Shown: in pieces, positions 641-12,887 of the stretch
Position numbering within the stretch: the first letter of the stretch is position 1
Layout of the letters: each line of letters opens with the position of its first letter
Assembly (NCBI GenBank): GCA_937949615.1
Contig: CALEDQ010000018.1
Location: 140,161 to 170,369, forward strand
Length of the DNA: 30,209 nucleotides
Direction: 5' to 3'
Source: an uncultured bacterium
GTDB lineage: Bacteria > Muiribacteriota > Ozemobacteria > Ozemobacterales > Ozemobacteraceae
The notes under the pieces: model-generated
Told to the model about the DNA's origin: nothing
What the model saw: only the letters and a program-made list of their open reading frames with translations
Databases searched by the model: none
Translations under genes and position numbers: made by a program

Positions 641-1321
641 ACTATTCTGAAGCTGCTCGGCGAAAAAGGCAGCTGGTATGAAGTTGAGGCGCAGGTGTGT
701 CAGCATTCCGGCTTTATCGAACGCACGGTCTTTTATCTGGCGGGACTGTATTCTGACCAGGGTCGCAAAGGCCAGGATTTTGCTGAGCTGAGACCGGCGA
801 TCGGCATTTCATTGCTTGGCTTCAATCTTTTTAAAAGTTCAGAACGGGTTCAGGAAATTTTTGCGTTGCGGAACACAGATAATTCAATTGTTCTGACCGA
901 TACCCTGATGCTGCATTATATCGATTTGAAGCGCTATCGGCGCAAAAAGCCTTTTGAAAAGCAGACTCCGTTTGAGAAATGGCTGCACCTGCTGAAATTT
1001 TCGAAGGCTTATGCTAGAATGGGGTTGAAGAGCACTGCGGTGTTTCCTGATGAGGAGGAACTGGCCATGGCCCTTGAAGAACATGTAAAACTTAACGCCG
1101 ACGCGGCGATGCGCCTGCGCATGGAAGACCGCGAGCGAGAACGCATCGAAGAGATAATCAAGCGCAGCGCCGCAATCAAAGAAGGCCGCGCCATCGGTAG
1201 CGAAGAAGGCAGAAACGCAGAAAAGCTCGAAATAGCCAGAAAGCTTAAAGCCGAAGGCATGTCAGACGCCATGATTCAAAAAACCACCGGCCTTGGCAAA
1301 GCTGATTTAGATAGGCTGTAA
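641..1321 (+). pseudogene. Rpn/YhgA-family recombination-promoting nuclease / putative transposase (PDDEXK, Transposase_31-like), 5'-truncated fragment
   Basis: The ORF (track 695..1321, open in frame back to 641) matches the middle and C-terminal parts of E. coli RpnA-type proteins. It has the E-x-Q core (YEVEAQ), the TPFEKWLHLL block and the C-terminal GSEEGRNAEKLEIARKLKAEGMSDAMIQKTTGL repeat. Only about 18 codons precede the E-x-Q motif, where intact members have 60-80 residues carrying the catalytic Asp residues. There is no ATG or SD at the 5' end; the track start is GTG. Confidence 0.6.
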
Positions 1322-1350
1322 ACTGGCAAATCTTTAAAGAAGCCATATTT

Positions 1351-2406
1351 TTATTTATTCTGCAGCCTGTTTGCAGCAAATTCAGACAAAACAGGCGCAG
1401 AAGCATATCCCTGGCGTTTTCCCAGCCTGATTATCCGGCCGTCCCAGAATTTGCTGAAGTTGTCATAGCTGACAGTAACAAGGCCACGAAGCGGGTCGGC
1501 CAAATACAGGGTTCTGTTGCTGCTTTTCCAGCCGATTACCGCGATTGCATGCTCAACATTGTAAAAACCTCCATCGACGGTTATCAGAAATGGCAGGTTC
1601 TCTTCGAGCGCAGACGCAAAATCTTTTGAGCTGTAAGCCGCTTCAGTAAAACCGAGATTGCGGCAACCAGCCACCGAGTGCCCGGTCAGCGAACCGATCA
1701 GCAGTGTCTTAACCTTTTTTACCGTCTCATACTCACTGGTTGCTTCACCATAAAGCCGGCAGATGCTTGTCAAAGCTGCCGGAACACAGGTAACCTGCAA
1801 GGTCTGCAACGTCACCCCATGAGAATCGAATTTTTCAGGGCCGACAAAGGGTGCCGCCGGCATGATTATTATCAGTTCTGCAACTGTAGAGCCAAGAAAC
1901 ACAAGAGCCAGAAGAAACTTTGAAATCCGGCGGAAGCCGTCGTCAACGCAGGAATAAGTGCGGTTCGTCAGATAGCCGAGCAGCAGAAGTTTCAGCATAC
2001 AGACGATTAACCAGGCGGGCAGAGCCGGGTCATATTCGATCGCCCGGCTGAAAAAGCCATTTTGCGAAGCAATAAAGCTGGCGATAAAAAAAACGAATGC
2101 CAGAACAGCGGGTAACTTAAGTCGTTCGAGGGAGTTGGAAGCAGCTGCAGCATTGTGAAACAATGCCCGACGCCGCACAAAAAGCATGGTCAGAGCGGCG
2201 ACAGTCAAGCCCAGCAAAGCCTTCAGCCAGAATTCAATATACATGCAGTGATTATAGCACGAAAAGCCGCAAATCATGCAGCAATAAACAATGGTTCCGA
2301 GAGAAAGTGCAGGCAGCGAACCTGCTTCACTACGCGAAAATTGTCTCAAACAGCAGAGACAACTCGAAGATAGCCAGGTCAAAGCTTCGGCAAGTGAGGC
2401 GCCCAT
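1351..2406 (-). CDS. Cys-rich polytopic membrane protein with a possible C-terminal papain-like (C39-like) cysteine peptidase domain
   Basis: A 351-aa ORF. Its N-terminal region is cysteine-dense (CLCCL, YCCMICGFSCYNHC) and embedded in hydrophobic segments. Four or five predicted TM helices follow. The C-terminal about 150 aa contains GHSVAGCRNLGF ... HAIAVIGW ... D spacing reminiscent of a Cys/His papain-fold peptidase. The start codon is not supported by an SD. Confidence 0.5.
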   Translation of the reverse strand: MGASLAEALTWLSSSCLCCLRQFSRSEAGSLPALSLGTIVYCCMICGFSCYNHCMYIEFWLKALLGLTVAALTMLFVRRRALFHNAAAASNSLERLKLPAVLAFVFFIASFIASQNGFFSRAIEYDPALPAWLIVCMLKLLLLGYLTNRTYSCVDDGFRRISKFLLALVFLGSTVAELIIIMPAAPFVGPEKFDSHGVTLQTLQVTCVPAALTSICRLYGEATSEYETVKKVKTLLIGSLTGHSVAGCRNLGFTEAAYSSKDFASALEENLPFLITVDGGFYNVEHAIAVIGWKSSNRTLYLADPLRGLVTVSYDNFSKFWDGRIIRLGKRQGYASAPVLSEFAANRLQNK

Positions 2407-2502
2407 TTTTTGCCGGGCGATAATAATTTGCGCTTACAGCAAAAGCAAAAAGCACTGTTGATGCTCGCAAAAAACTTTTTTGAAAAAATATTTAAAAAAG
2501 TC

Positions 2503-2531
2503 TTGACACTTTGCAGCAAATTGACGATAAT
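2503..2531 (+). promoter_or_regulatory. Near-consensus sigma70-type promoter for the phasin-like gene
   Basis: TTGACA at 2503-2508, a 17-nt spacer, and GATAAT at 2526-2531, in an AT-rich divergent intergenic region. The phasin-like start is at 2612 with an AGGAG SD 9 nt upstream. Confidence 0.6.
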
Positions 2532-2611
2532 AATTTTGCAACGCAGCAATAAGTTAAAACAAAACGACCGCAAAGTCCTAAATTTTTAATCTGAAAACAG
2601 GAGTTTTTAAA

Positions 2612-2926
2612 ATGAACAAATGGATGGAATTTTCAAACGAATACACTCAGCTCATGAAAGACAATTTCCAGGTCATGACCAAATTCTGGCGCGCCAGCAT
2701 GGACCAGACCTCTGGCTACACCAAGAAGAACATGGAACTTTTCTTCGACCACATGAACCGCAATGTCGAATTCATGCACGAAATGTACAACAACACCGCT
2801 GCCTCGAACGAAGAGCTCAAAAAACTCTATCGCGAAAATATTGAAAAATTCAACACCCGCTTCCAGAAGGTTTATGAAGAAACCATCAAGGCCATGACTC
2901 CGAAGCACATGAACGCTGAAAAGTAA
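2612..2926 (+). CDS. Small phasin-like / PHA-granule-associated protein (tentative)
   Basis: A 104-aa ORF with a strong SD and strong promoter. The protein is hydrophilic, helical and Met/Phe/Tyr/Lys-rich, with an N-terminal W-x-x-F/W motif resembling the PhaE/phasin N-terminus. It sits immediately upstream of the phaB-phaC-phaE-phaC-phaA cluster. The assignment is by context and composition only. Confidence 0.5.
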   Translation: MNKWMEFSNEYTQLMKDNFQVMTKFWRASMDQTSGYTKKNMELFFDHMNRNVEFMHEMYNNTAASNEELKKLYRENIEKFNTRFQKVYEETIKAMTPKHMNAEK

Positions 2927-2943
2927 GGTCTGCAGCAAGCCAG

Positions 2944-2982
2944 GGGCCGTTCTGAACACGGCCAGTCCGCCAGGACGGCCCC
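2944..2982 (+). terminator. GC-rich hairpin downstream of the phasin-like gene (terminator-like; no clean U-tract)
   Basis: GGGGCCGTtCTG (2944-2955) pairs with CAGgACGGCCCC (2971-2982) around a 15-nt loop. Weak T-runs follow farther downstream (gcgttttt at about 3020). Confidence 0.35.
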
Positions 2983-3348
2983 GGTTGCAGACTTTGCAAA
3001 GCAGCAAAGCCGCGCCGCGTTTTTCCCCTGATCTGGAGCCTGAGACTGAAACTTGAAAAAGCAGGCCCGCCGCAAGTGAGAAATTTCACAATCGAGATTG
3101 ATCGCAAAGTAAAGTTGATCGCAAGCAGGGCGGTTCTGAGAAAAATTGCGGGGGCGCAGGGTGACAAAGTGGGCGGAAACGTAGAAGTTACAGGCAATTG
3201 CAGGATGAACGACAGAAGGGGCCGGAAACAACAGCAGACGGCCCGCAGGCGCAGGTGCCGCAGTTTTTATCGCGGCAATGCAGAAACAAGAATTTAATCG
3301 AAACGACTTAAAACAGCCGCCGAGAGGTGGCCAGACAGGAGAAACACA

Positions 3349-4098
3349 ATGAAACGAATGACAGGTAAAGTAGCTCTCATCACTGGTGGTGCCGCAGGTA
3401 TCGGTCTCAAGGCCGCAACTATTTTTGCCGAAGAAGGCGCAACCGTTTATGCTCTCGATATCAGCGACAAGGCTCTTGCAGGCCTGGCCGACGTTAAACT
3501 TTCGCCCGAAGCCACCGGCAAAATCATCGGCAAGAAGGTCGATGTATCGAGCCACGCCGACGTTAACAAAGTCGTCGATGAAATTCACGCTGCCGAAGGC
3601 AAAATCGATTGTCTCGTCAACAACGCCGGCATCACTGCTGACGCTACCCTGATGAAGATGACCGAAGAACAGTTCGACCGCGTCATCAAAGTTAACCTCA
3701 AAGGCGTATTTCTGATGGCTCAGGCCTGTGCCGCCAAGATGACCGCAGCCGGCAAAGGCTCGATCGTCAATACTTCCTCGATCGTCGGCGTTCAGGGCAA
3801 CTTTGGCCAGACCAACTATTCTGCTGCCAAAGCCGGCGTCATCGGCATGACCTACACCTGGTCACGCGAACTCGGCCGCAAGGGCGTGCGTGTTAATGCC
3901 GTCGCTCCCGGTTACACCTGGACCGAAATGCTCGCCACCGTTCCCGAAAAGGTTATCAAGATGCTCGAAGAAAAGACCCCGATGCAGCGCCTTGGCCAGC
4001 CCGAAGAAGTTGCCAAGCTTTATCTGTTCCTGGCAAGCGACGAAAGCTCATACATCACCGGTCAGGTTATCGGCGTCGACGGCGGCCTGAAACTCTGA
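3349..4098 (+). CDS. phaB: Acetoacetyl-CoA reductase / 3-oxoacyl reductase, SDR family (PhaB-like by context)
   Basis: 249 aa. Has the TGGAAGIG Rossmann motif, NNAG, the catalytic S...YSAAK triad spacing and the PG motif. An AGGAGA SD lies 6 nt upstream. It is embedded in the PHA cluster. Confidence 0.85.
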   Translation: MKRMTGKVALITGGAAGIGLKAATIFAEEGATVYALDISDKALAGLADVKLSPEATGKIIGKKVDVSSHADVNKVVDEIHAAEGKIDCLVNNAGITADATLMKMTEEQFDRVIKVNLKGVFLMAQACAAKMTAAGKGSIVNTSSIVGVQGNFGQTNYSAAKAGVIGMTYTWSRELGRKGVRVNAVAPGYTWTEMLATVPEKVIKMLEEKTPMQRLGQPEEVAKLYLFLASDESSYITGQVIGVDGGLKL

Positions 4099-4126
4099 TA
4101 AACTAGCCTAGAAAGGTCGGAAGCAA

Positions 4127-5152
4127 ATGATAGCAAACATGGACACCATCGCTCAGCAACTCGATGCGATCAGCGAGCATTACCTGCGTCAGACCGCAGG
4201 CGAGCTCGATACGTATCCGCGCGGCGTCACCCCCAGAGAAGAAGTCTGGCGCGCCGGCAATGTTTCGCTGCTGCGCTTCGAAAGCCCCGAAGGCGTCGAA
4301 GGCCAGCCGATTCTCATTGTCCCGTCACTGATCAACCGCTGGTATGTTCTCGACATCACCGAAGAAGTCAGCTTCATTCGCGAATTTGCCCAGAAACGCC
4401 CGGTTTATCTCATCGACTGGGGTTACCCCGGCGCCGAAGTCGGCCATCTGCCGCTCAGCCACTATTATCACCGCTCGATCAGACGCGCTGTGCGCTTCAT
4501 GTGTCGCGAACACGGCTGTGAAAAGGTCGACATGCTCGGTTACTGCATCGGCGGCACCATGGCATACGCTTTCAGCTGCCTCGAACCAGATATGGTCGAT
4601 CATCTCGTGCTTCTGACCGCCCCGATCGACTTCAGAGATTCCGGCATCTTCGGCACTTACGCCGACCATTTCCCGACTGAAGAATTCAAGCAAAGCATGG
4701 ATTTCATGCCCGGCTGGCTGCTCGCCTTCTCTTTCAATTTCGTGCAGCCGATGGGAACCTGGCAGAAAACGAAAATGTTCAAGGAAAAATTCGAAAGCAA
4801 AGGTTTCATGAAGCTTTACAACGCCATGGAACGCTGGATCGCTGATCCGGTAAGTTACCCCGGCAAAGCTTATTACCACATGCTTACCGAACTTTATAAA
4901 GAAAACCTGCTGAGTCAGGGCAAACTGACGACCGCCGAAGGCCTGCTCGTAGACCCGGCCGCGCGCCGTTCAAAAGCCCTGATTCTCAACGCCGGCAAAG
5001 ATCATATTGCGCCGTTGTGCACCACACAGCTGCCGCAGAGCGACAAGGCACCGGTCAAACAGGTAACGATTCCCTCAGGCCACATCGGCATAACCACCGG
5101 GCGCAACAGCAGAGATGCCAGCAAAAGCGCGCTCGAATTCATAATGAACTAA
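4127..5152 (+). CDS. phaC: Class III-type poly(3-hydroxyalkanoate) synthase catalytic subunit PhaC (paralog 1)
   Basis: 341 aa. Has the lipase box G-Y-C-I-G-G (MLGYCIGGTMAYAF) and the conserved LIVPSLINRWYVLD...VYLIDWGYP block of class III/IV PhaC. Downstream Asp (AGKDHIAP) and His (SGHIGI) candidates are present. Confidence 0.85.
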   Translation: MIANMDTIAQQLDAISEHYLRQTAGELDTYPRGVTPREEVWRAGNVSLLRFESPEGVEGQPILIVPSLINRWYVLDITEEVSFIREFAQKRPVYLIDWGYPGAEVGHLPLSHYYHRSIRRAVRFMCREHGCEKVDMLGYCIGGTMAYAFSCLEPDMVDHLVLLTAPIDFRDSGIFGTYADHFPTEEFKQSMDFMPGWLLAFSFNFVQPMGTWQKTKMFKEKFESKGFMKLYNAMERWIADPVSYPGKAYYHMLTELYKENLLSQGKLTTAEGLLVDPAARRSKALILNAGKDHIAPLCTTQLPQSDKAPVKQVTIPSGHIGITTGRNSRDASKSALEFIMN

Positions 5153-5165
5153 GGAGACTGTAACA

Positions 5166-5522
5166 ATGTTCACCATGGGCGAAGATATGATGAAACAATG
5201 GGCTGAAAACTGGGAAAAGCTGATGGGCGACCAGCTCGAAAAGCTTGTGACCAACGAAAAATTCATCAGTGAAATGTCAAAATCGCTTGCTGCCACCATG
5301 ACCGGCAAAGCGGTTTATTCAAAGATGCTCGACGAACAGATGGCAGCGATGAACCTGCCCTCACGCACCGACATCGTTAAGATCATGCAGAAGCTCACCG
5401 ATATCGAAGAACGCCTCGTCGACCTCACCGAGAAGTTCGAAGATTACGTTGACGCCCAGGGCGACAAGCCGGCTGCCGCAGCCGCCAGCCACGAAGGAAA
5501 AAGCAAAAAACATAAAAAATAG
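5166..5522 (+). CDS. phaE: Minimal PhaE/PhaR-like PHA synthase subunit (118 aa)
   Basis: The N-terminal W-x3-W-x-K motif (MKQWAENWEKLM) and the C-terminal NLPSRTDIVKIMQKLTDIEERLVDL match the conserved N- and C-terminal blocks of PhaE (A. vinosum-type). The roughly 200-aa middle region of canonical PhaE is absent. An AAGGAG SD is present. Confidence 0.6.
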   Translation: MFTMGEDMMKQWAENWEKLMGDQLEKLVTNEKFISEMSKSLAATMTGKAVYSKMLDEQMAAMNLPSRTDIVKIMQKLTDIEERLVDLTEKFEDYVDAQGDKPAAAAASHEGKSKKHKK

Positions 5523-5542
5523 TTCTCTGCTGGACTAAAGCG

Positions 5543-5602
5543 CCTGTCGGTTTTAAAATCGTCATACAGGCAGAACCTGAATAAAATTTTAAAACCGACA
5601 GG
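5543..5602 (+). promoter_or_regulatory. Perfect 17-bp inverted repeat (26-nt spacer) immediately upstream of the phaC2 RBS
   Basis: CCTGTCGGTTTTAAAAT (5543-5559) and ATTTTAAAACCGACAGG (5586-5602) are exact reverse complements. The loop contains a nested CAGG...CCTG mini-stem. The phaC2 SD GAAAGAGAG follows directly at 5603. Confidence 0.5.
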
Positions 5603-5614
5603 AAAGAGAGAACT

Positions 5615-6682
5615 ATGGCCAAAGCAAAAGAGCTCAAAGAGATGCCCGAAGAATACCGCGAGATCGTATCGCGCTCTGTTCTCAAAAGCTATACCGAAGC
5701 TGACCGTCGTCGACTCGGCATGGAACCGACCCGCAAGACCCCGGTTTTCAGACAGGCATCCTGGACCCTCTATCGCTGCGGCGATGACTTTAAATCCGAT
5801 TACAACCCGGTAGTCGTGGTGCCGTCGCTGATCAACCGCAACTATATCATGGACCTGCTGCCGACCCACTCGCTGATCGAACAGCTGAAAGCCTCCGGGC
5901 TCGACGTTTTTCTCATCGACTGGGGCGACCCCGATGCCGGAATGGGCCAGTGCGGCTTCGACCACTACGTCAGCGTCTGGGTGCGCCGCGCCATCCGCCA
6001 GGTTAAACGCCTGACCGGCTGCAAAAAGGTTCAGCTCGCCGGCCAGTGTATCGGCGGCATGATGGCAACGATGTATGCCGCTCACCCCGAGCTGCGCAAA
6101 GACCTCAGCAGCCTGTTTCTGCTGACAGCGCCGATCGATCTCGCCGACTCCGGCCTTCTCGCCACCTGGACCGGTACCGAAGGCTTCGACGTCGAAAAGA
6201 TGACCGCCGCCTATCAGGGCCTCGTGCCCGCCAAGTTCTTTCACGCATCGTTTCCGCTGCTCGACCCGAAAAAGCAGCTGAGCAAATACCGCGGTCTGCT
6301 CGAAAACTTCGAAATGCCGGGCTTCAAACAGATCTGGGAAGCATTAGATATCTGGGGCAGCGACAACGTCGACTTCACCAGACAGGCTTTCATCGAGCTG
6401 ATCAGCACGTTCTATCAGGAAAACGCTTTTTACAAAGCCGAATATACTATCATGGGCCAGCCGGTCGATTTCCGCGATATCGATATTCCGGTGTTGAGCC
6501 TGGTAGCGAGAGACGATCATGTTTTCAATGAAAAGGCCGCCAAAGCCATTCATGAATGCAAGGCCGCGAAAAAAGGAAAATTGGATTACCACGTGATCCC
6601 CGCCGGGCATGTGTCGCTGATTGCGGCCCACCCCGTCAGAATTACGACCTTTGCTCTGATCAAAGAATTTTTGACCAGATAA
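5615..6682 (+). CDS. phaC: Class III-type poly(3-hydroxyalkanoate) synthase catalytic subunit PhaC (paralog 2)
   Basis: 355 aa. Has the lipase box LAGQCIGGMMATMY and the block VVVPSLINRNYIMDL...VFLIDWGDP. Asp/His candidates are RDDHVF and PAGHVSL. It aligns colinearly with paralog 1 by eye but is clearly diverged. Confidence 0.85.
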   Translation: MAKAKELKEMPEEYREIVSRSVLKSYTEADRRRLGMEPTRKTPVFRQASWTLYRCGDDFKSDYNPVVVVPSLINRNYIMDLLPTHSLIEQLKASGLDVFLIDWGDPDAGMGQCGFDHYVSVWVRRAIRQVKRLTGCKKVQLAGQCIGGMMATMYAAHPELRKDLSSLFLLTAPIDLADSGLLATWTGTEGFDVEKMTAAYQGLVPAKFFHASFPLLDPKKQLSKYRGLLENFEMPGFKQIWEALDIWGSDNVDFTRQAFIELISTFYQENAFYKAEYTIMGQPVDFRDIDIPVLSLVARDDHVFNEKAAKAIHECKAAKKGKLDYHVIPAGHVSLIAAHPVRITTFALIKEFLTR

Positions 6683-6703
6683 TACATTCACAAGGAGCAG
6701 AAA

Positions 6704-7888
6704 ATGACTGAAGTATTTATCGTTGGTGCAGCAAGAACCGCAATCGGCGCCCTCATGGGCACTCTCAAGGGCGTTCCCGCCCACAAACTGGGCAGCGTCG
6801 TCATCAAGGCCGCTCTCGAACGCGCCGGTGTGAAGCCCGATCAGATAGATGAAGTAATCATGGGTAACGTGCTGATGGCCGGTCAGGGCCAGGGTCCGGG
6901 CCGCCAGGCTGCCATGGGCGCCGGGATTCCCGAAACCGTTCCTGCCTGGGCAATCAACCAGCTTTGCGGTTCAGGTCTCAAAACCATCGCTCTCGCTGTT
7001 GACGCCATCAGAACCGGTGAGTCTCAGTGTATCGTCGCCGGCGGCATGGAAAGCATGAGCAGCGCCCCTCACCTCGCCAATCTGCGCAACGGCACCGCTC
7101 TCGGCAACGTAAATTTCATAGACTCGACCGTCTGGGACGGCCTGACCGACGTTTTCTCAGGCGAACACATGGGCATGACCGCTGAATGGCTTGCCGATGA
7201 ACTCAAAATCAGCCGCGAAGAAATGGACAAGTTCTCTGCTGAAAGCCAGAAACGCGTTGCCGATGCCTGGGAAGCCGGAAAATTCGATGACGAAATCGTT
7301 CCGGTCGAAATTCCGCAGCGCAAGGGCGACCCGATCATGTTCAAGAAAGACGAACATTTCCGCGTCGGTACAACTTTTGAAACCCTGAGCAAACTGAAGC
7401 CCGCCTTCAAAAAAGACGGCAGCGTCACCGCCGGTAACGCTTCAGGCATCAACGACGGCGCCGCCGCTGTTGTCGTCGCCTCAGCCGAATTTGTTAAAAA
7501 ACACAACCTTAAACCGATCGCCAGAATCGCCGCGCACGCGACCACTGGTCTGAATCCTTCAAGAATGGGTCTTGGCCCGGTTTCTGCAACGCAGAAAGCC
7601 CTTGCCAAAGCCGGCTGGAAAGTCAGCGATCTTGACCGCGTCGAAGCCAACGAAGCTTTCGCCGTTCAGTCGCTCGGCGTCATCAAACAGCTCGGTCTCG
7701 ACCCGGCAAAAACGAATGTCAACGGCGGAGCCATCGCTCTCGGTCACCCCATCGGTGCTTCCGGGGCCCGCGTGCTGGTAACGCTGCTGTATGAAATGAT
7801 GCGTGTAAACGCTGGCAAAGGCCTCGCTACCCTCTGTGTAGGCGGCGGCATGGGTGTTGCCATGGCAGTCGAACGCGTCAAGGCTTGA
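6704..7888 (+). CDS. phaA: Acetyl-CoA C-acetyltransferase (biosynthetic thiolase)
   Basis: 394 aa. Has the thiolase active-site Cys in NQLCGSGLK, the C-terminal [19 protein letters not shown] and [15 protein letters not shown] signatures. An AAGGAG SD lies 6 nt upstream. Confidence 0.9.
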
Positions 7889-7904
7889 TTCCTTTCCTTG
7901 CCTC

Positions 7905-7950
7905 TGTGCGGCGTCATTAACCGCACAGACCTTCCGGGCCTGGGGATTCT
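7905..7950 (+). terminator. Rho-independent terminator after phaA
   Basis: An imperfect GC stem (GAC..CCGGG / CCCGG..GTC) at about 7908-7943 is followed by T8 (7943-7950). Confidence 0.5.
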
Positions 7951-8175
7951 TTCCCGGGCTGTCTTTTTTTTAGAGCGATTCATTGATTGACCAATTAGCA
8001 ATTGCGCTTAACTGGTTATCTTTTTAAGGGGCAGCTTCGGCCTATCAGCCGGGTTGCTTTTTCTTCAGCGATTCGCTTCGCTCACAAGCTTCCGAAAAAG
8101 CAATCCCGTCTTCTCGCCTCGCAATTTTGTAATTGAGGATCTCTATATTTAACCAAAGAGTTGTTACTTTTTAGC

Positions 8176-8232
8176 TTGACTTTAAATTCATGTTAAATAG
8201 TTTAATATTAAAGTATTTAATTTTGAATCGAG
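8176..8232 (+). promoter_or_regulatory. AT-rich promoter region with overlapping palindromes upstream of the MarR gene (candidate MarR operator)
   Basis: TTGACT at 8176. TTAAAtagTTTAA (8193-8205) and the perfect 10-bp palindrome TTAATATTAA (8202-8211) lie directly upstream of the MarR-family gene. MarR proteins typically autoregulate via palindromes in their own promoter. Confidence 0.4.
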
Positions 8233-8244
8233 TTGAACTTAAAA

Positions 8245-8712
8245 ATGAGTACTCACTACAAAGGCACAAAGGAAGAGGTCAGCGCCCTCGACTGCTTTAT
8301 CAAGCTGCTGCGCGCCTCTGAATCGGTCAATGCCGCCGCAGTGAGGCAGATTCAGTCATATGGTCTGACCGAAAGCCAGTTCGGGGTTCTTGAAGCACTG
8401 CTGCATCTCGGCACCCTCAATCAGAACCAGCTGGCCGGCAAGATTCTCAAAAGCGGCGGCAATATCACGCTGGTCATCGACAACCTGCTCAAGCACGGGC
8501 TGGTCGTCAAAGAAAAACGCAGTGATGACCGCCGCTGCTACTGGATCAGCCTCAGCGCCCGCGGGAAAGAACTTATCAGCCGAATTTTTCCGGAACATGT
8601 TAGAATAATTACCGGGAGATTTGCGGCACTTAATTCAGAAGAACAAAAACAGCTGGCGATGCTCTGCCGCAAACTGGGTACCGCCGCAAAAAATCAGGAG
8701 GAAGAAAAATGA
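8245..8712 (+). CDS. MarR-family transcriptional regulator
   Basis: A winged-HTH MarR pattern (LTESQFGVLEALLHLGTLNQNQLAGKILKSGGNITLVIDNLLKHGLVVKEKRSDDRR). The track ORF begins at a TTG (8233). ATG at 8245 is preferred as the start, though no strong SD supports either. The stop overlaps the azoR start (ATGA). Confidence 0.75.
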   Translation: MSTHYKGTKEEVSALDCFIKLLRASESVNAAAVRQIQSYGLTESQFGVLEALLHLGTLNQNQLAGKILKSGGNITLVIDNLLKHGLVVKEKRSDDRRCYWISLSARGKELISRIFPEHVRIITGRFAALNSEEQKQLAMLCRKLGTAAKNQEEEK

Positions 8713-9335
8713 AAAAGGTACTTCACATTGTTGCCAGTCCGAGAGGTGCATCGTCTCGCACCCTGCGTATAGCAGATGCGTTGATAAAGAAAATCAGAAA
8801 GCAGTTTCCCAGTGCAGCAATCGACACGCTCGACGTTTTTGCTGAAAAGCTGCCCGAAATGAATATTACCCGCGTCAAAGGCAAATACATGCTGATGAGC
8901 GGCCAGGAACTCAGCGGTGATGCCGTCGCCGCCTGGGAAGAAATCAAAGCCCACATTGCCCGTTTTCTCGCTGCCGATATCATCGTCATCTCGACCCCGA
9001 TGTGGAACTTCGGTATTCCCTACCGGCTGAAACACTACATTGACGTGGTCTGGCAGCCCGGTTTCATGTTCAAATACACCGAAAACGGCCCCGTCGGCCT
9101 CGCTGCCGGCCGCAAGGTCTTCGTCGTGTCGACCCGCGGCGGCGATTACACACCAGGCACCCCGGCTGAACCCTACGACCAGATCACGCCCTACCTCAAA
9201 ACCGTTCTCGGCTGGGCCGGCATCACTGACCCGACCTTCATCAGCGGCCAGCCAATGGATGCCAACACCGAAGACGGCCGCGAAGCCAAAATCAAAGAAG
9301 CCATCGCCAGCATCGACTCTCTCGCCCTCGCCTGA
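8709..9335 (+). CDS. azoR: FMN-dependent NADH-azoreductase / flavodoxin-like NAD(P)H quinone oxidoreductase (AzoR/AcpD family)
   Basis: 208 aa. Has the N-terminal MKKVLHIVASPRG, the PMWNFGIPYRLKHYIDVV motif and GQPMD. A strong AGGAGG SD lies 7 nt upstream. A MarR-plus-azoreductase pairing is common. Confidence 0.8.
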   Translation: MKKVLHIVASPRGASSRTLRIADALIKKIRKQFPSAAIDTLDVFAEKLPEMNITRVKGKYMLMSGQELSGDAVAAWEEIKAHIARFLAADIIVISTPMWNFGIPYRLKHYIDVVWQPGFMFKYTENGPVGLAAGRKVFVVSTRGGDYTPGTPAEPYDQITPYLKTVLGWAGITDPTFISGQPMDANTEDGREAKIKEAIASIDSLALA

Positions 9336-9349
9336 TCTCTAAAGAAAAC

Positions 9350-9390
9350 CCGGGTATGCCATCAACCGACGGCATACCCGGTTCTTTTAT
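9350..9390 (+). terminator. Rho-independent terminator after azoR
   Basis: A perfect 11-bp stem CCGGGTATGCC (9350-9360) / GGCATACCCGG (9371-9381) with a 10-nt loop, followed by TTCTTTTAT. Confidence 0.7.
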
Positions 9391-9463
9391 CAAGGCAGAC
9401 AGATCAAGGAATCTGCCACTGCTGATTTTGCGAATGTGAAGGCCGCTGCCACAACTGGGCTTG

Positions 9464-10306
9464 ATGTGCTATCATAATGAAGATCAGAACCTAAAGACGG
9501 GGCATGAGCGTCGAAACTTAAAAATTTTCTCTGCCAGACAAATTGCAGGATTGATGGGAGAAATGATTACGGATAAATACCACGCACAATTGCAGGAATC
9601 AGTCAAAGATGAAGTCTTATTCAAGCTTTTGAAAGCTTTCGTAAAGGCTGTTTATTTTTTGCTTCTGATGATTCTTATCGTTCCGGCCGGCTTATTAGCA
9701 ATCATTGCAACTGTTTTTGCTTATCCTATTTTGCTTTATGGTGGCTTGCTAGGTGGTATCTGGACCTTTCTTATAGCTTTGCTTCTTCCGCCGGTTTTTA
9801 TCGTGCTGGTGGTTCCTTTGCTGGTTTGTATCGCACCATTTTTTCTGATCTATGGAGCTTTTACCGGAGATATTTGGCCAGATTCAAAGCCGGAAGAACC
9901 AGATCCGAAGGCGCAAAAAATTGCCGAGCAGGTTGAGGCTTTCAACGTCAAATGGGAGCTGATTAAAGACTTGCCTCCGTTCCAGTTGTCAGATGAAGCC
10001 GCCAGAAATTTTGAGATGGCCAGAGACAAGCTTAAGGGTTCAACCTCTGAGTTCGCCGACAATTGCCCCGGAGAAGGCAAGTATCTGTTAGGAATCGCGG
10101 CCGATTACATCAAAGATGAGGGCGAGTTTGGCAGAGAACTCGTAGAACTTATAGATATGGCTATCGTGCATTCCTTTAACTATAACGAAGGAGAATCACA
10201 ATCTGCCTTGCATAAAATGATCTGGGATTGCGCCAGACTCATTACGCTACGACTCGAAAGCGTGGAGCCGAAAACCGGCATTCAAAAACTTTCTTTCGAC
10301 AGGTGA
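9464..10306 (+). CDS. Hypothetical membrane protein (about 4 TM helices plus a soluble acidic C-terminal domain), no recognisable family
   Basis: A long ORF with a hydrophobic core (LLLMILIVPAGLLAIIATVFAYPILLYGGLLGGIWTFLIALLLPPVFIVLVVPLLVCIAPFFLIYGAF) followed by a roughly 140-aa hydrophilic tail. GC content is visibly lower than in the flanks. The start is uncertain: a TTG at 9461 and ATGs at 9464, 9554 and 9563 are possible, and none has a good SD. Confidence 0.5.
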   Translation: MCYHNEDQNLKTGHERRNLKIFSARQIAGLMGEMITDKYHAQLQESVKDEVLFKLLKAFVKAVYFLLLMILIVPAGLLAIIATVFAYPILLYGGLLGGIWTFLIALLLPPVFIVLVVPLLVCIAPFFLIYGAFTGDIWPDSKPEEPDPKAQKIAEQVEAFNVKWELIKDLPPFQLSDEAARNFEMARDKLKGSTSEFADNCPGEGKYLLGIAADYIKDEGEFGRELVELIDMAIVHSFNYNEGESQSALHKMIWDCARLITLRLESVEPKTGIQKLSFDR

Positions 10307-10343
10307 TAATATTACCGCATTACTCCTGCAGGTTTGCGAACTC

Positions 10344-10366
10344 ACCGGAAGTCTCCGGTTATTTAA
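10344..10366 (+). terminator. Short hairpin terminator between the convergent membrane-protein and radC genes
   Basis: ACCGGA agtc TCCGGT (10344-10359) followed by TATTTAA. Confidence 0.35.
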
Positions 10367-11024
10367 GGCGCCCTGATTCAAGAAAGCTGAAGTAATCTGT
10401 TTTATTGAAAATAATATGGTCAAGCAGGTGAAGCCCGATTATATCGCCCGCACCCTTGAGTTGCGCGGTAATGTCGATATCGGCCACCGAAGGTTCGAGG
10501 CTGCCGGCAGGGTGGTTGTGAGCAACGATTATCGCCGATGCCCTGTCGGTCAGGGCGTCAGCAAAAACCTCGCGCGGATGCACCGGAGCGCGGTCAATCA
10601 GCCCGATCGAAACAACTCTGATGTTTAAAATTTCATTGGCACCGTTGATGCTGGCGCATAAAAAATGTTCCTGCTTCCGGTCGGCGTAATGCCTGATATG
10701 GGGTAAAAGATCAGCTGGGGTCGTAATTCTAGCGCCCTCTGGCTTGATGCGGCGGCGGGCAAATTCAAGCGCAGCGATTATCAGTGCCGATTTCGCATCG
10801 CCGACACCGGCAAACTCCTGCAGATCCTGGGTTTGAACGCCAAGACCTTTTGCATCGATGACCTTCACAAGTCTGGCAGCCAGCTGCAGCACATCCATGC
10901 CAGGGGTGCCCTTACCGAGCAGTATCGCCAGCAGTTCCTGGTCGCTCAGAGCGGCTGCACCTTTTCGAAGAAGCTTTTCGCGCGGGCGATCTTCCTGTGG
11001 AATGTCTCGGATATTCTCTCTCAT
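10359..11024 (-). CDS. radC: RadC-like JAB/MPN-domain protein (UPF0758)
   Basis: 221 aa. Has the N-terminal HhH-like region (REKLLRKGAAALSDQELLAILLGKG) and a JAMM core with E...HNHPAG...S...D (IIVAHNHPAGSLEPSVAD). Its start lies 4 nt downstream of the hsdR-fragment stop, so the two are probably translationally coupled. Confidence 0.8.
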   Translation of the reverse strand: MRENIRDIPQEDRPREKLLRKGAAALSDQELLAILLGKGTPGMDVLQLAARLVKVIDAKGLGVQTQDLQEFAGVGDAKSALIIAALEFARRRIKPEGARITTPADLLPHIRHYADRKQEHFLCASINGANEILNIRVVSIGLIDRAPVHPREVFADALTDRASAIIVAHNHPAGSLEPSVADIDITAQLKGAGDIIGLHLLDHIIFNKTDYFSFLESGRLK

Positions 11025-11028
11025 GGTT

Positions 11029-12887
11029 TCATGCCGCCTGCAGATGTGTTTGAATAACGGTTATGGCCATAATATCAAAAATGCCTCCCTGATCGGTATA
11101 TTTTGGGTCAGCCAGTTCGTCATAACGGCCCAGATCTGTATAACAGACCTGTATTTCGCCGTTCACCTGGCCACGGTATGCCCCTTCAAGGAAATGGTGA
11201 TCTTCGCGATGAACGATGACGGTTGCCCGTATCGACTGGTCGGCAATTTTGGTTTCCATCACTTCTTTGATCTTAATAGCTTCTGTATCGCTTATAGGAA
11301 ATTTACCTTTGATTTCATCAATCATTTCCTGTACCGAAACCTTTTTAATCGGCGCACCCGAGCCTTTTTTCCCACCGCCGGCCTTCAGCTTTACAGTGCC
11401 GGAAACAGCTTTAACCACGCCAAGATGTTCGACCGAAGCTTTAATAACCTCTGTGTGGCGAATCTGCTGCATCAGTTCAGAAATGGTGCCCTGCTTGATC
11501 AGCTGAGGACCAACCAGCTCGGCAAAGGCAGCAAACTCACGTATTTCATCGTCAAGGGTCGCAAAGCAGGTTAAAAAATGAAAACTCTTTACCAGCCTGG
11601 CCAATAGATAAACAAATGATTTTCTTTCATCCGGAGTCGGCATTTTCGCCTGAAAACGCACACGGAGGCCATTGACCAGATACTGCACCTGCGCATCTGT
11701 GCCGGCAGTCGCCGTCGTTATGAAATCACGGGCGTCGGCCTGCGTGAAGATGCCAAACGAAAGAATTTTGTCGAGAATCTGCCGGCAGAGATCGGGATCT
11801 GGCAGGTCTGGCTCAAAAGGCGTGCCTTTGCGGTATTTTGCAAACGCTTTCATGATGGCTGCAGCATTATTGGTAAAATCAACGACCAGAACTTCGCTTT
11901 TTCCTTTATGACAGCGGTTAAGGCGCGAAACAGTCTGAACGGCGTTGCGGCCAGAAACGACCTTATCGAGAAACATGCCGGCAAGCAATGGCTGATCAAA
12001 ACCGGTCTGAAATTTGTTGGCAACTACCATGATCCGGTAATCATCGCCTTCGAAGCGGTCCTCTATCAATTCGCCGTCATTCAGGCCATTTATCGCATGC
12101 TCACTTATCGCGACATTTGTTTCAGGGTGTACAAAATCAGAAAAAGCGTAGAGAGCTTTGTAAGCAGCACCCTTTTCTTTAAGCTTTTCTCTGATGATGT
12201 CGAAGTAACGCAGCCCGGCGATTCGTGAAGTTGTAACGATCATGGCCTTGGCCCGCCCACCGATAAGTGGCTTGACGTCGTTTTCGAAAATTCGCAGCAT
12301 GACTTCGGCTTTATATTGAATCAGCCCTTCATCCTGATAGGCCACGTTCTGCAACGCTTTGGCAACCACACCTTTGGGATAAAATTTTTCGTCGGTATCT
12401 TTCGGAATAACCGGGCAGTGCAGATTATACAGGGTTTTATAAGAAATGATGCTCGCGGCCACATCGACGATATAGCCCTCGGCAATGGCTTCAGCTTCGC
12501 TGTAAGTGTCGAACGTGGCCCCGAAAAGGCTTACCGTGGCAGGGGCGGGCGTTGCGGTAAAAGCTACGAACAGCTGATTGCGGTCATGTTCTTTGATGAT
12601 CTGTGCAATCTTTTCTTCTTCTTCAATTTCATTTTGCCCGGTATCATCAGTATCGGCTTCATCGGGTTTGCGAAAGGGCACGCGGATCGCGGCGCCCATG
12701 CGGCCTTCCTGAGAACGGTGCGCCTCATCGATCAAAAATGCAACCCGAAGCTTCTTTAATTCTGGCTGTTTTTCGAGCTGTTCGAGCACCCAGACGAATT
12801 TCTGCTGGGTAGTGACGACAATCGGCCGACGTTTTTTCAAAAAAAGAGGCAGATCGTCTGCTTTGCGTGCCAGACCGACCAGGTCTT
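11029..12887 (-). pseudogene. hsdR: Type I restriction enzyme R subunit (HsdR), C-terminal about 2/3 only: helicase motifs I-VI and a DUF3387-like C-terminal domain; the N-terminal nuclease domain is absent
   Basis: The 603-aa ORF has IVVTTQQKF, FLIDEAHRSQ (motif II), FTATP (III), DTYS..AIAEGY, VVANKFQTGFDQPLL (V) and AVQTVSRLNR (VI). The track start is a TTG. Extending the same frame upstream to the nearest stop (12887) adds GTGKTCLKDLVGLARKADDLPLFLKK, which is the Walker A motif I. Only about 23 aa separate motif I from the IVVTT block, so motif Ia is missing. There is no room for the roughly 300-400 aa nuclease domain. Confidence 0.65.

Follow-up and report, generated by a model that had tools for sequence, protein, structure and literature searches.

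A predicted polyhydroxyalkanoate synthase operon in Riflebacteria with two short PhaC genes flanking one small PhaE/PhaR-like gene

We analyzed a stretch of 30,209 nucleotides (nt) from an uncultured Riflebacteria genome (GenBank assembly GCA_937949615.1, contig CALEDQ010000018.1, positions 140,161 to 170,369, forward strand), called the window below, in which two polyhydroxyalkanoate (PHA) synthase genes, phaC1 and phaC2, enclose a gene for a protein of 118 amino acids (aa) that we call mini-PhaE. Positions 4127-6682, which hold the three genes, appear to belong to a PHA biosynthesis operon whose predicted function is polymer synthesis. The explanation that we favor, with moderate confidence, is a working operon in which two competent PhaC proteins share one minimal partner made of the core of the PhaE and PhaR subunits. 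Its product would most likely be a short-chain PHA of the poly(3-hydroxybutyrate) (PHB) type. The three genes are:

4127..5152, + strand: PhaC1, short PHA synthase catalytic subunit, 341 aa (open reading frame (ORF), TIGR01836 match, PhaC fold)
5166..5522, + strand: mini-PhaE, 118 aa (ORF, PF09712 and TIGR02132 matches)
5615..6682, + strand: PhaC2, short PHA synthase catalytic subunit, 355 aa (ORF, TIGR01836 match)

Both PhaC proteins scored highest against the class III PhaC model TIGR01836, with 190.2 bits (E 5e-56) for PhaC1 and 195.1 bits (E 2e-57) for PhaC2, compared to 109 and 140 bits for the class I model and 41 and 74 bits for the class II model. However, both missed the curated cut-off of TIGR01836 (365.3 bits), reaching about half of it. 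An earlier reading of the letters alone (the sequence-only reading) had described the two subunits as class III-type. That description holds as the nearest available label, but scores of 190 and 195 bits against 365 and a tree position outside the canonical class III group, described below, keep both proteins from full membership. The motif R-M-E-x-W-I-x-D-x-x-D, given for class III in PMC7137286, reads A-M-E-R-W-I-A-D-P-V-S in PhaC1 (5 of 7 fixed positions) and A-L-D-I-W-G-S-D-N-V-D in PhaC2 (3 of 7); its tryptophan is kept in both.

The candidate catalytic residues are present in each protein. PhaC1 has the lipase box G138-Y-C140-I-G-G with D292 and H319, and PhaC2 has G143-Q-C145-I-G-G with D301 and H332. 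Both proteins aligned to the catalytic domain of Cupriavidus necator PhaC (PDB 5hz2; E 1e-21 for PhaC1 and 3e-25 for PhaC2), and the GFCVGG, EDH, GH and FWNGD motifs of that structure matched the box cysteine, the aspartate of the DH motif, the histidine of the GH motif and the conserved tryptophan of both. The lipase box and the Asp and His candidates that the sequence-only reading had reported for both subunits were therefore kept on alignment to a known synthase. Cys, Asp and His were invariant in all intact orthologs of both PhaC proteins, including members at about 50% identity, and the PhaC2 triad was unchanged in 20 of 20 orthologs. The AlphaFold2 model of PhaC1 (predicted local distance difference test score (pLDDT) 91.7) had an N-terminal helix at residues 2-29 followed by an alpha/beta-hydrolase core. 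Its best fold matches in the PDB were the PhaC structures 9knl, 5t6o and 5xav (E 5e-20 to 1e-17), whereas the match to a PHB depolymerase reached only about 1e-10.

The gene order in the window is phasin-like gene, phaB, phaC1, mini-phaE, phaC2, phaA. A conservation scan using one genome per species found 17 Riflebacteria loci, and all 17 had this order as far as their contigs reach, with PhaC protein identities of 66-99%. Wallbacteria-type contigs (L018-L022) had the same succession of PhaC, E (128-147 aa) and PhaC at about 49-58% identity; these contigs further contain a regulator gene of the PhaR type, a Lipase_2/DUF7379 gene and several small ORFs resembling phasins, and some have an acyl-CoA ligase as well. 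PhaC1 and E were never separate in the 22 loci that span the region, nor was E ever found apart from PhaC2. A chance association of the three genes was rejected on the strength of the same order in 17/17 related loci and in the Wallbacteria-type contigs.

Two details of the scan concern single loci. At L009 (155-1179) phaC1 is split into overlapping ORFs of 251 and 125 aa while mini-phaE, phaC2 and phaA are intact, the result of a frameshift that is likely due to misassembly or to a local pseudogene. The homologs of mini-PhaE all came from metagenome-assembled genomes (MAGs) named Riflebacteria, Rifleibacteriota or Ozemobacter, except for one Erysipelotrichia and one Clostridiales label. These two, L001 (SABV01000245.1, 'Erysipelotrichia bacterium') and P0067 ('Clostridiales bacterium'), carry the operon at 73-90% protein identity to the window, and the labels of both bins are probably wrong.

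Ratios of nonsynonymous to synonymous substitution rates (dN/dS), calculated by the Nei-Gojobori method between the window genes and those of six relatives, were 0.08-0.16 for phaC1, 0.02-0.11 for the mini-phaE core and 0.02-0.15 for phaC2, with similar values for phaA and phaB. The two phaC genes and the core of mini-phaE are thus under strong purifying selection. The possibility that one PhaC is a decayed copy was ruled out by the invariant triads and by dN/dS values of 0.02-0.16. Taken together, these data suggest that both PhaC proteins are catalytically competent.

One of the two PhaC proteins, rather than polymerize, could act in PHA mobilization, by thiolysis or hydrolysis, or regulate the other PhaC. 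Thiolysis would in principle be possible with a Cys-Asp-His triad, as in the intracellular depolymerase PhaZa1. No recognizable depolymerase gene phaZ, regulator gene phaR or canonical phaE was found elsewhere in the 30-kb window, and the Wallbacteria-type loci have PhaR and the Lipase_2/DUF7379 gene. However, the latter loci keep both PhaC proteins despite having a candidate lipase or depolymerase. In addition, both window proteins align over their full length with PhaC and retain the G-x-C-x-G-G box, the DH motif and the tryptophan, and the PhaC1 model fits PhaC structures far better than PhaZ. With both paralogs PhaC-like throughout, a mobilizing or regulatory PhaC seems very improbable and the least likely of the alternatives considered here.

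PhaC1 and PhaC2 are only 30% identical to each other. The sequence-only reading had proposed placing both on a tree with references of classes I-IV. We constructed distance-based neighbor-joining trees (about 317 columns, 100 bootstraps) with annotated class III PhaC proteins from a Rhizobium plasmid and from Haloferax, the PhaC that lies beside a 338-aa PhaE at locus L024, and the class I enzyme of Aeromonas caviae as the outgroup. PhaC1 and its orthologs formed one clade (bootstrap 100) and PhaC2 and its orthologs another (99-100), and the two were sisters in just 0-8% of replicates. Both clades fell outside the group formed by the Rhizobium plasmid, L024 and Haloferax proteins. The deep nodes were poorly supported, and the placement of PhaC1 and PhaC2 is therefore approximate. 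In a search of 5.8 billion proteins, relatives of PhaC1 ranged from 100% down to 49% identity and those of PhaC2 from 99% down to 54%, after which both dropped to 36% or less. A recent tandem duplication was rejected, given the 30% identity and the 0-8% sister bootstrap; PhaC1 and PhaC2 appear to be old, separate paralogs that diverged long ago. PhaC2 lies inside a wider clade (bootstrap 76) with the box G-Q-C-[LI]-G-G, whose members come from loci L030, L031 and L032, and the PhaC of L033 is 67% identical to the L031 member. Each member of this GQC clade has a mini-PhaE gene before it.

Mini-PhaE matched the Pfam PhaE model PF09712 at 26.8 bits (gathering score 25.7) over positions 236-307 of 311 only, the PhaR model TIGR02132 at 24.2 bits (E 2.7e-5, cut-off 148.4) over positions 18-111 of 189, and the PhaE model TIGR01834 at 19.5 bits (E 5.8e-4, cut-off 154.95) over positions 235-318 of 324. 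These matches, together with those of the wider family below, bear out the earlier proposal that the small protein is related to PhaE and PhaR. It had also been described as retaining an N-terminal and a C-terminal block of PhaE, and this was not the case: residues 10-93 align as a single piece, and only to the C-terminal part of the PhaE profiles. In the AlphaFold2 model (pLDDT 89), helices span residues 4-29, 31-61 and 67-99, an invariant N-L-P-S-R turn (NLPSR box, residues 63-67) sits between the last two, and the tail is disordered. Residues 1-99 form an acidic core with a net charge of -6, and residues 100-118 (window positions 5463-5519) form a basic tail. Across orthologs, an acidic core of about 98 residues is strongly conserved, and the A/P/K-rich tails vary in length, with some, such as P0074, carrying long AKK/TKK repeats. 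Mini-PhaE would thus be the core common to PhaE and PhaR followed by a variable basic tail.

More distant comparisons gave mixed results. The full length of mini-PhaE aligned to a 96-aa ORF located one gene away from a Kofleriaceae PhaC (L023) with an hhalign probability of 96%. The mini-PhaE alignment found the correct region of the 338-aa PhaE at a probability of only 23%, and gave nothing useful against the 201-aa PhaE of the Rhizobium plasmid. A sequence search of the PDB returned no solved structure resembling mini-PhaE, and a fold search returned none better than E = 10. There was no match of mini-PhaE to the phasin models PF05597 and TIGR01837 at E <= 0.1. The gene has 80 ortholog clusters, mostly of 112-165 aa apart from a few fragments, and adjoins a co-oriented short phaC on either side in the window and in 22 related loci. 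The 80 clusters, the purifying selection and a strong Shine-Dalgarno sequence before the gene exclude a chance ORF.

Searching 1.84 billion representatives exhaustively with a profile extended the family to 177 clusters at E <= 1e-3. The best 150 matches were 29-241 aa long (median 136), and no canonical PhaE of 300 aa or more was among them. Of 144 family members, 109 matched the PhaR model (best E 5.5e-23), 92 matched TIGR01834 and 89 matched the Pfam PhaE model, while the phasin-type models PF05597 and TIGR01837 (PhaF/PhaI type) were matched by 44 and 62, respectively. A basic tail, with at least 24% Lys plus Arg in the last 25 residues, was present in 96 of the 144, whereas the remainder of the protein had a median of 13%. 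The source names of ten members were looked up, and every named one was a 'hypothetical protein'.

We sampled about 10 non-orthologous neighborhoods of the family. Every member sampled was beside or near short PhaC genes, usually two. The loci are listed below, with protein lengths in aa following the gene names.

L023, Kofleriaceae: E96, acyl-CoA ligase, PhaC
L025, metagenome: PhaC363, ligase, E93; also a second PhaC
L029, another 'Riflebacteria' MAG, 4867-8591: PhaC368, E149, E'143, PhaC389
L030, another Wallbacteria MAG, 6001-10394: PhaR, E119, phasin-like, PhaC376, phaB, E131, PhaC360
L031, metagenome, 823-6403: PhaC367, phaB, E151, phaA, E112, PhaC355
L032, metagenome, 3318-6679: PhaC350, E'162, E194, PhaC365
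L033, metagenome (the sole locus returned by a metagenome scan with a narrower alignment): E, then GQC-type PhaC
Unnumbered metagenome locus: E149, then two Abhydrolase_1 genes and a ligase

The possible minimal-partner subclass put forward in the sequence-only reading gains comparative support from the approximately 177 clusters of small relatives and from the short PhaC genes beside or near every member sampled. Genes for an AMP-binding acyl-CoA ligase occur within related clusters at L019 (8798-10429), L021 (8683-10329), L023 (3413-4996) and L025 (1968-3557), and the window has none. These ligases may activate free hydroxy acids for polymerization.

The single mini-PhaE of the operon would serve both PhaC proteins, either in two separate C-E enzymes or in one mixed complex. 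We favor sharing because mini-phaE lies 13 nt after phaC1, is never apart from either PhaC and is the only gene of its kind in the operon. There is a precedent in Haloferax, where one PhaE activates PhaC, PhaC1 and PhaC3, and haloarchaea with several PhaC proteins mostly have one phaE (PMC2939530, PMC12863089). Comparative gene order and sequence identities suggest that the ancestral unit was mini-phaE followed by phaC2. In L030, L031, L032 and L033 a mini-E gene is directly 5' of the GQC-box PhaC, and the window protein is 27-34% identical to the E proteins of GQC-type PhaCs and to E149 of L029, which follows a likely sister of the GQC clade, compared to 16-29% for those beside the other PhaC.

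The same observations can be read as two independent synthases, with mini-PhaE as the partner of PhaC2 only and with PhaC1 as an alternative enzyme, suited to other conditions or monomers, that works by itself or has a partner encoded elsewhere. The closest relatives of the window protein are those directly 5' of GQC-type PhaCs in L031, L032 and L033, related loci have a separate E for each PhaC, and in L033 the E gene precedes a GQC PhaC, the 5.2 kb upstream containing no second one. A strong hairpin between mini-phaE and phaC2, described below, also hints at separate control of phaC2. However, mini-phaE is closer to phaC1 (13 nt, with its own strong Shine-Dalgarno sequence) than to phaC2 (92 nt), and PhaC1 and E are inseparable across the 22 spanning loci. 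A partner is required by the short PhaC proteins characterized so far (PMC2939530, PMC7137286), and PhaC1 has an N-terminal helix (residues 2-29) of the type proposed to contact PhaE (PMC12863089). We therefore view two independent synthases as possible but doubtful.

Several points weigh against a shared PhaE-type partner. PhaC1 might be active without any partner. A layout with two E genes is found in another 'Riflebacteria' MAG (L029) and another 'Wallbacteria' MAG (L030), and for this reason sharing can be proposed only as a lineage-specific arrangement. The assignment to PhaE is weak (26.8 against 25.7 bits, and far under both NCBIfam cut-offs); since, in addition, 44 to 62 of the 144 relatives match phasin models, a role in granule binding without activation is possible. 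Finally, bootstraps in the tree of E proteins were 12-34, and the case that E belongs with PhaC2 consequently rests on identities and gene order.

A third arrangement would be an obligate mixed complex, in which a PhaC1-PhaC2 hetero-oligomer is held or activated by mini-PhaE and the two active sites differ, either in priming and elongation or in their monomers. Pairs of divergent short PhaC proteins recur in unrelated lineages (the window, L018-L022, L025, L029-L032 and the unnumbered metagenome locus), and L029-L032, including the differently organized 'Riflebacteria' and 'Wallbacteria' MAGs, have two short PhaC and two mini-E genes per cluster. All paired PhaC proteins whose sequences were read keep the Cys box and the His; as exceptions elsewhere in the motifs, PhaC376 of L030 has DS instead of DH, and a pattern search found no DH-type motif in PhaC350 of L032. 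The paralogs are co-retained from about 50% to 99% identity under similar selection, and solved PhaC structures are dimeric (PMC7214940). Co-retention, however, is equally explained by two enzymes of different substrate range. Moreover, the GYC-type partners at different loci do not form one clade, so that no consistent alpha/beta pairing is apparent, and L033 has seemingly one PhaC nearby. On balance an obligate mixed complex appears unlikely. A broader form of this proposal would recognize a fifth kind of synthase, in which GYC and GQC PhaC proteins and a 13-kDa subunit consisting of the PhaE core make up an obligate complex, the tail of this subunit anchors the initiation complex to the nucleoid, the active sites divide roles or monomers, and the system is widespread in uncultured anaerobes (Riflebacteria, Wallbacteria and others); to this we give low credence.

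The remaining features of the operon and its flanks are listed below.

2503..2531, + strand: promoter-like site 5' of the phasin-like gene (TTGACA, 17 nt, GATAAT; 11/12; consensus match only)
2612..2926, + strand: phasin-like protein, 104 aa, candidate granule coat (weak PF09361 Phasin_2 match)
3349..4098, + strand: phaB-like short-chain dehydrogenase, acetoacetyl-CoA / 3-oxoacyl reductase (PF13561, E 6e-68)
5519..5616, + strand: nested RNA stem-loop in the spacer from mini-phaE to phaC2 (inverted repeats, minimum free energy -40.1 kcal/mol, z = -7.25)
6704..7888, + strand: phaA-like acetyl-CoA acetyltransferase, thiolase (PF00108, PF02803, TIGR01930)
7937..7970, + strand: terminator-like hairpin 3' of phaA (10-bp stem with 6 GC pairs, then the T run GTCTTTTTTT; consensus match only)
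8233..8712, + strand: MarR-family regulator (family searches; PHA link uncertain)
8709..9335, + strand: flavin mononucleotide (FMN) azoreductase-like gene (family searches; PHA link uncertain)

The spacers are 28 nt between phaB and phaC1, 13 nt between phaC1 and mini-phaE, 92 nt between mini-phaE and phaC2, and 21 nt between phaC2 and phaA. A purine-rich ribosome-binding site precedes every gene from phaB through phaA; that of mini-phaE is AGGAG, 8 nt before the ATG. The thiolase scored 472 bits against TIGR01930, over the cut-off, whereas the reductase scored 244 bits against the acetoacetyl-CoA reductase model TIGR01829, under the cut-off of 302, and the phasin-like protein scored 18.1 bits against PF09361, under the gathering score of 24.9. 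Judging from the enzyme families, PhaA would condense acetyl-CoA and PhaB would reduce acetoacetyl-CoA to (R)-3-hydroxybutyryl-CoA, which PhaC1 and PhaC2 would polymerize with the 118-aa protein as the minimal non-catalytic PhaE/PhaR partner of short PhaC proteins. More speculatively, and by analogy with PhaM and PhaF, its basic tail could keep the granule or the initiation complex attached to the nucleoid.

The tail also raises the question of whether the 118-aa protein is a synthase subunit at all. It could be a phasin-like granule protein or a tether between granule and nucleoid, analogous to PhaM, PhaF or PhaI. Relatives match PhaF/PhaI-type models (PF05597 in 44/144, TIGR01837 in 62/144), and the window protein has an acidic helical core followed by a basic A/P/K-rich tail. 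Such basic tails occur in 96 of the 144 relatives, and the tail resembles the DNA-binding tails of PhaM and PhaF (PMC9049629). In contrast, the window protein itself matches PhaE and PhaR models and neither phasin model at the threshold given above, and family members directly adjoin phaC, often overlapping its start, as in the classical phaE-phaC arrangement. The separate, conserved phasin-like gene at 2612-2926 argues against mini-PhaE as the only granule coat of the locus. Of the 17 Riflebacteria loci, 15 have a full-length copy of this gene 5' of phaB (77-100% identity); the contig of L016 ends within the gene (61%), and L009 lacks the upstream flank. The Wallbacteria-type loci have two to three weaker phasin-like paralogs. 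Phasin and partner roles are also not exclusive, because PhaM combines activation of PhaC1 with DNA binding and tethering of granules to the nucleoid (PMC9049629, PMC3556143). A granule protein that is no synthase subunit is, in our estimation, improbable.

Among known systems, class III PhaEC (Allochromatium vinosum and Synechocystis, and the haloarchaeal Haloarcula and Haloferax) is similar in having a short PhaC of about 340-360 aa with a G-x-C-x-G-G box and a Cys-Asp-His triad, an adjacent non-catalytic helical partner with an LP(S/T)R 'PhaE box', and clustered phaA and phaB. However, at about 13 kDa the 118-aa protein is smaller than class III partners, which have masses near 40 kDa (bacteria) or 20 kDa (haloarchaea; PMC2939530). 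Canonical PhaE lengths are about 300-400 aa in bacteria and about 180-200 aa in haloarchaea and some plasmids; L024 (338 aa) and the Rhizobium plasmid (201 aa) are examples. Of the PhaE profiles, the window partner aligns with no more than the C-terminal 72-84 positions; its gene has a PhaC gene on each side in one operon, and the PhaC2 box is GQC where the canonical references in the tree have G[VI]CQGG. Class IV PhaRC (Bacillus megaterium, B. cereus) likewise combines a short PhaC with a small partner matching the PhaR model, but that partner is about 160-200 aa. The window protein is about 60% of the length of the PhaR model, scores 24 against 148 bits, accompanies two PhaC proteins and comes from Riflebacteria rather than Bacilli. 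The synthase system thus seems class III/IV-like, yet falls outside those classes in curated scores, partner size and tree position.

PhaM of C. necator and PhaF of Pseudomonas putida also combine a helical part that binds the granule or synthase with a Lys/Ala/Pro-rich basic tail, and they show that such a tail can tether granules to DNA (PMC9049629). The window protein has no sequence match to them at E <= 0.1, and its tail is about 20 residues, longer in orthologs. In Pseudomonas phaC1-phaZ-phaC2 two phaC genes similarly flank a third pha gene (PMC9049629), but there the middle gene is a depolymerase and the PhaC proteins are long, partner-free class II enzymes. Haloferax mediterranei has several genes (phaC, C1, C2, C3), but the extra ones are scattered and were silent under the first conditions tested (PMC2939530), whereas those of the window are in one operon. 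The clusters L023, L025 and L029-L033 encode members of the same family of small PhaE/PhaR-core proteins (93-194 aa, in many cases with a basic tail) next to short PhaC proteins, frequently two; they differ in usually having one mini-E per PhaC or an acyl-CoA ligase in between, compared to the single E of the window.

The division of PHA synthases into four classes by subunit make-up is still in use in papers from 2021-2026 (PMC8312272, PMC13020758). Our literature search found no paper on the gene organization of PHA synthases in Riflebacteria or Wallbacteria, on a 'class V' PHA synthase, or on a PhaE or PhaEC structure. Loci with two old, intact short PhaC proteins and one 13-kDa partner, within a larger and mostly unnamed mini-PhaE/PhaR family, lie outside the four-class scheme, and the system is uncharacterized, taxonomically widespread and built from known parts. 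The role of the PhaE/PhaR subunit is poorly understood; if so small a protein suffices to activate a short PhaC, it would define the minimal functional part of that subunit. The two PhaC clades are candidate sources of polymerases, which may differ in monomer range. Annotation pipelines label most of these PhaC proteins as 'alpha/beta fold hydrolase' and most partners as 'hypothetical protein', and because of this, genome surveys of PHA capacity probably undercount these phyla.

The stem-loop before phaC2 combines a perfect inner stem of 17 bp (5543-5559 / 5586-5602) with an outer stem of 10 bp (5519-5528 / 5607-5616). In the outer stem, the region of the mini-phaE stop codon pairs with the phaC2 start codon and ribosome-binding region. 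A U tract is lacking. The hairpin is kept, with a changed interior, in L001-L006 and L008, where the base of the stem has one G:C to A:U swap among relatives, and more distant orthologous loci lack it. The hairpin may adjust phaC2 expression but is not a conserved part of the system.

Downstream of the operon, MarR and azoreductase-like (Flavodoxin_2) genes also follow phaA in L006, L007, L008, L011, L013 and L017, which make up most of the Riflebacteria loci whose flanks are long enough, and the Wallbacteria-type locus L018 has a Flavodoxin_2 gene after phaA on the opposite strand (10971-11585). Elsewhere in the window, a PD-(D/E)XK transposase-like ORF is located at 695-1321 (+ strand). The interval 10359-12840 (- strand) holds a RadC-like JAB gene and, beside it, a 603-aa ORF with a TTG start. 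This ORF aligns with just the later portion of type I/III restriction helicase domains (SWI2_SNF2 profile, starting at position 91), and it may encode a truncated restriction subunit.

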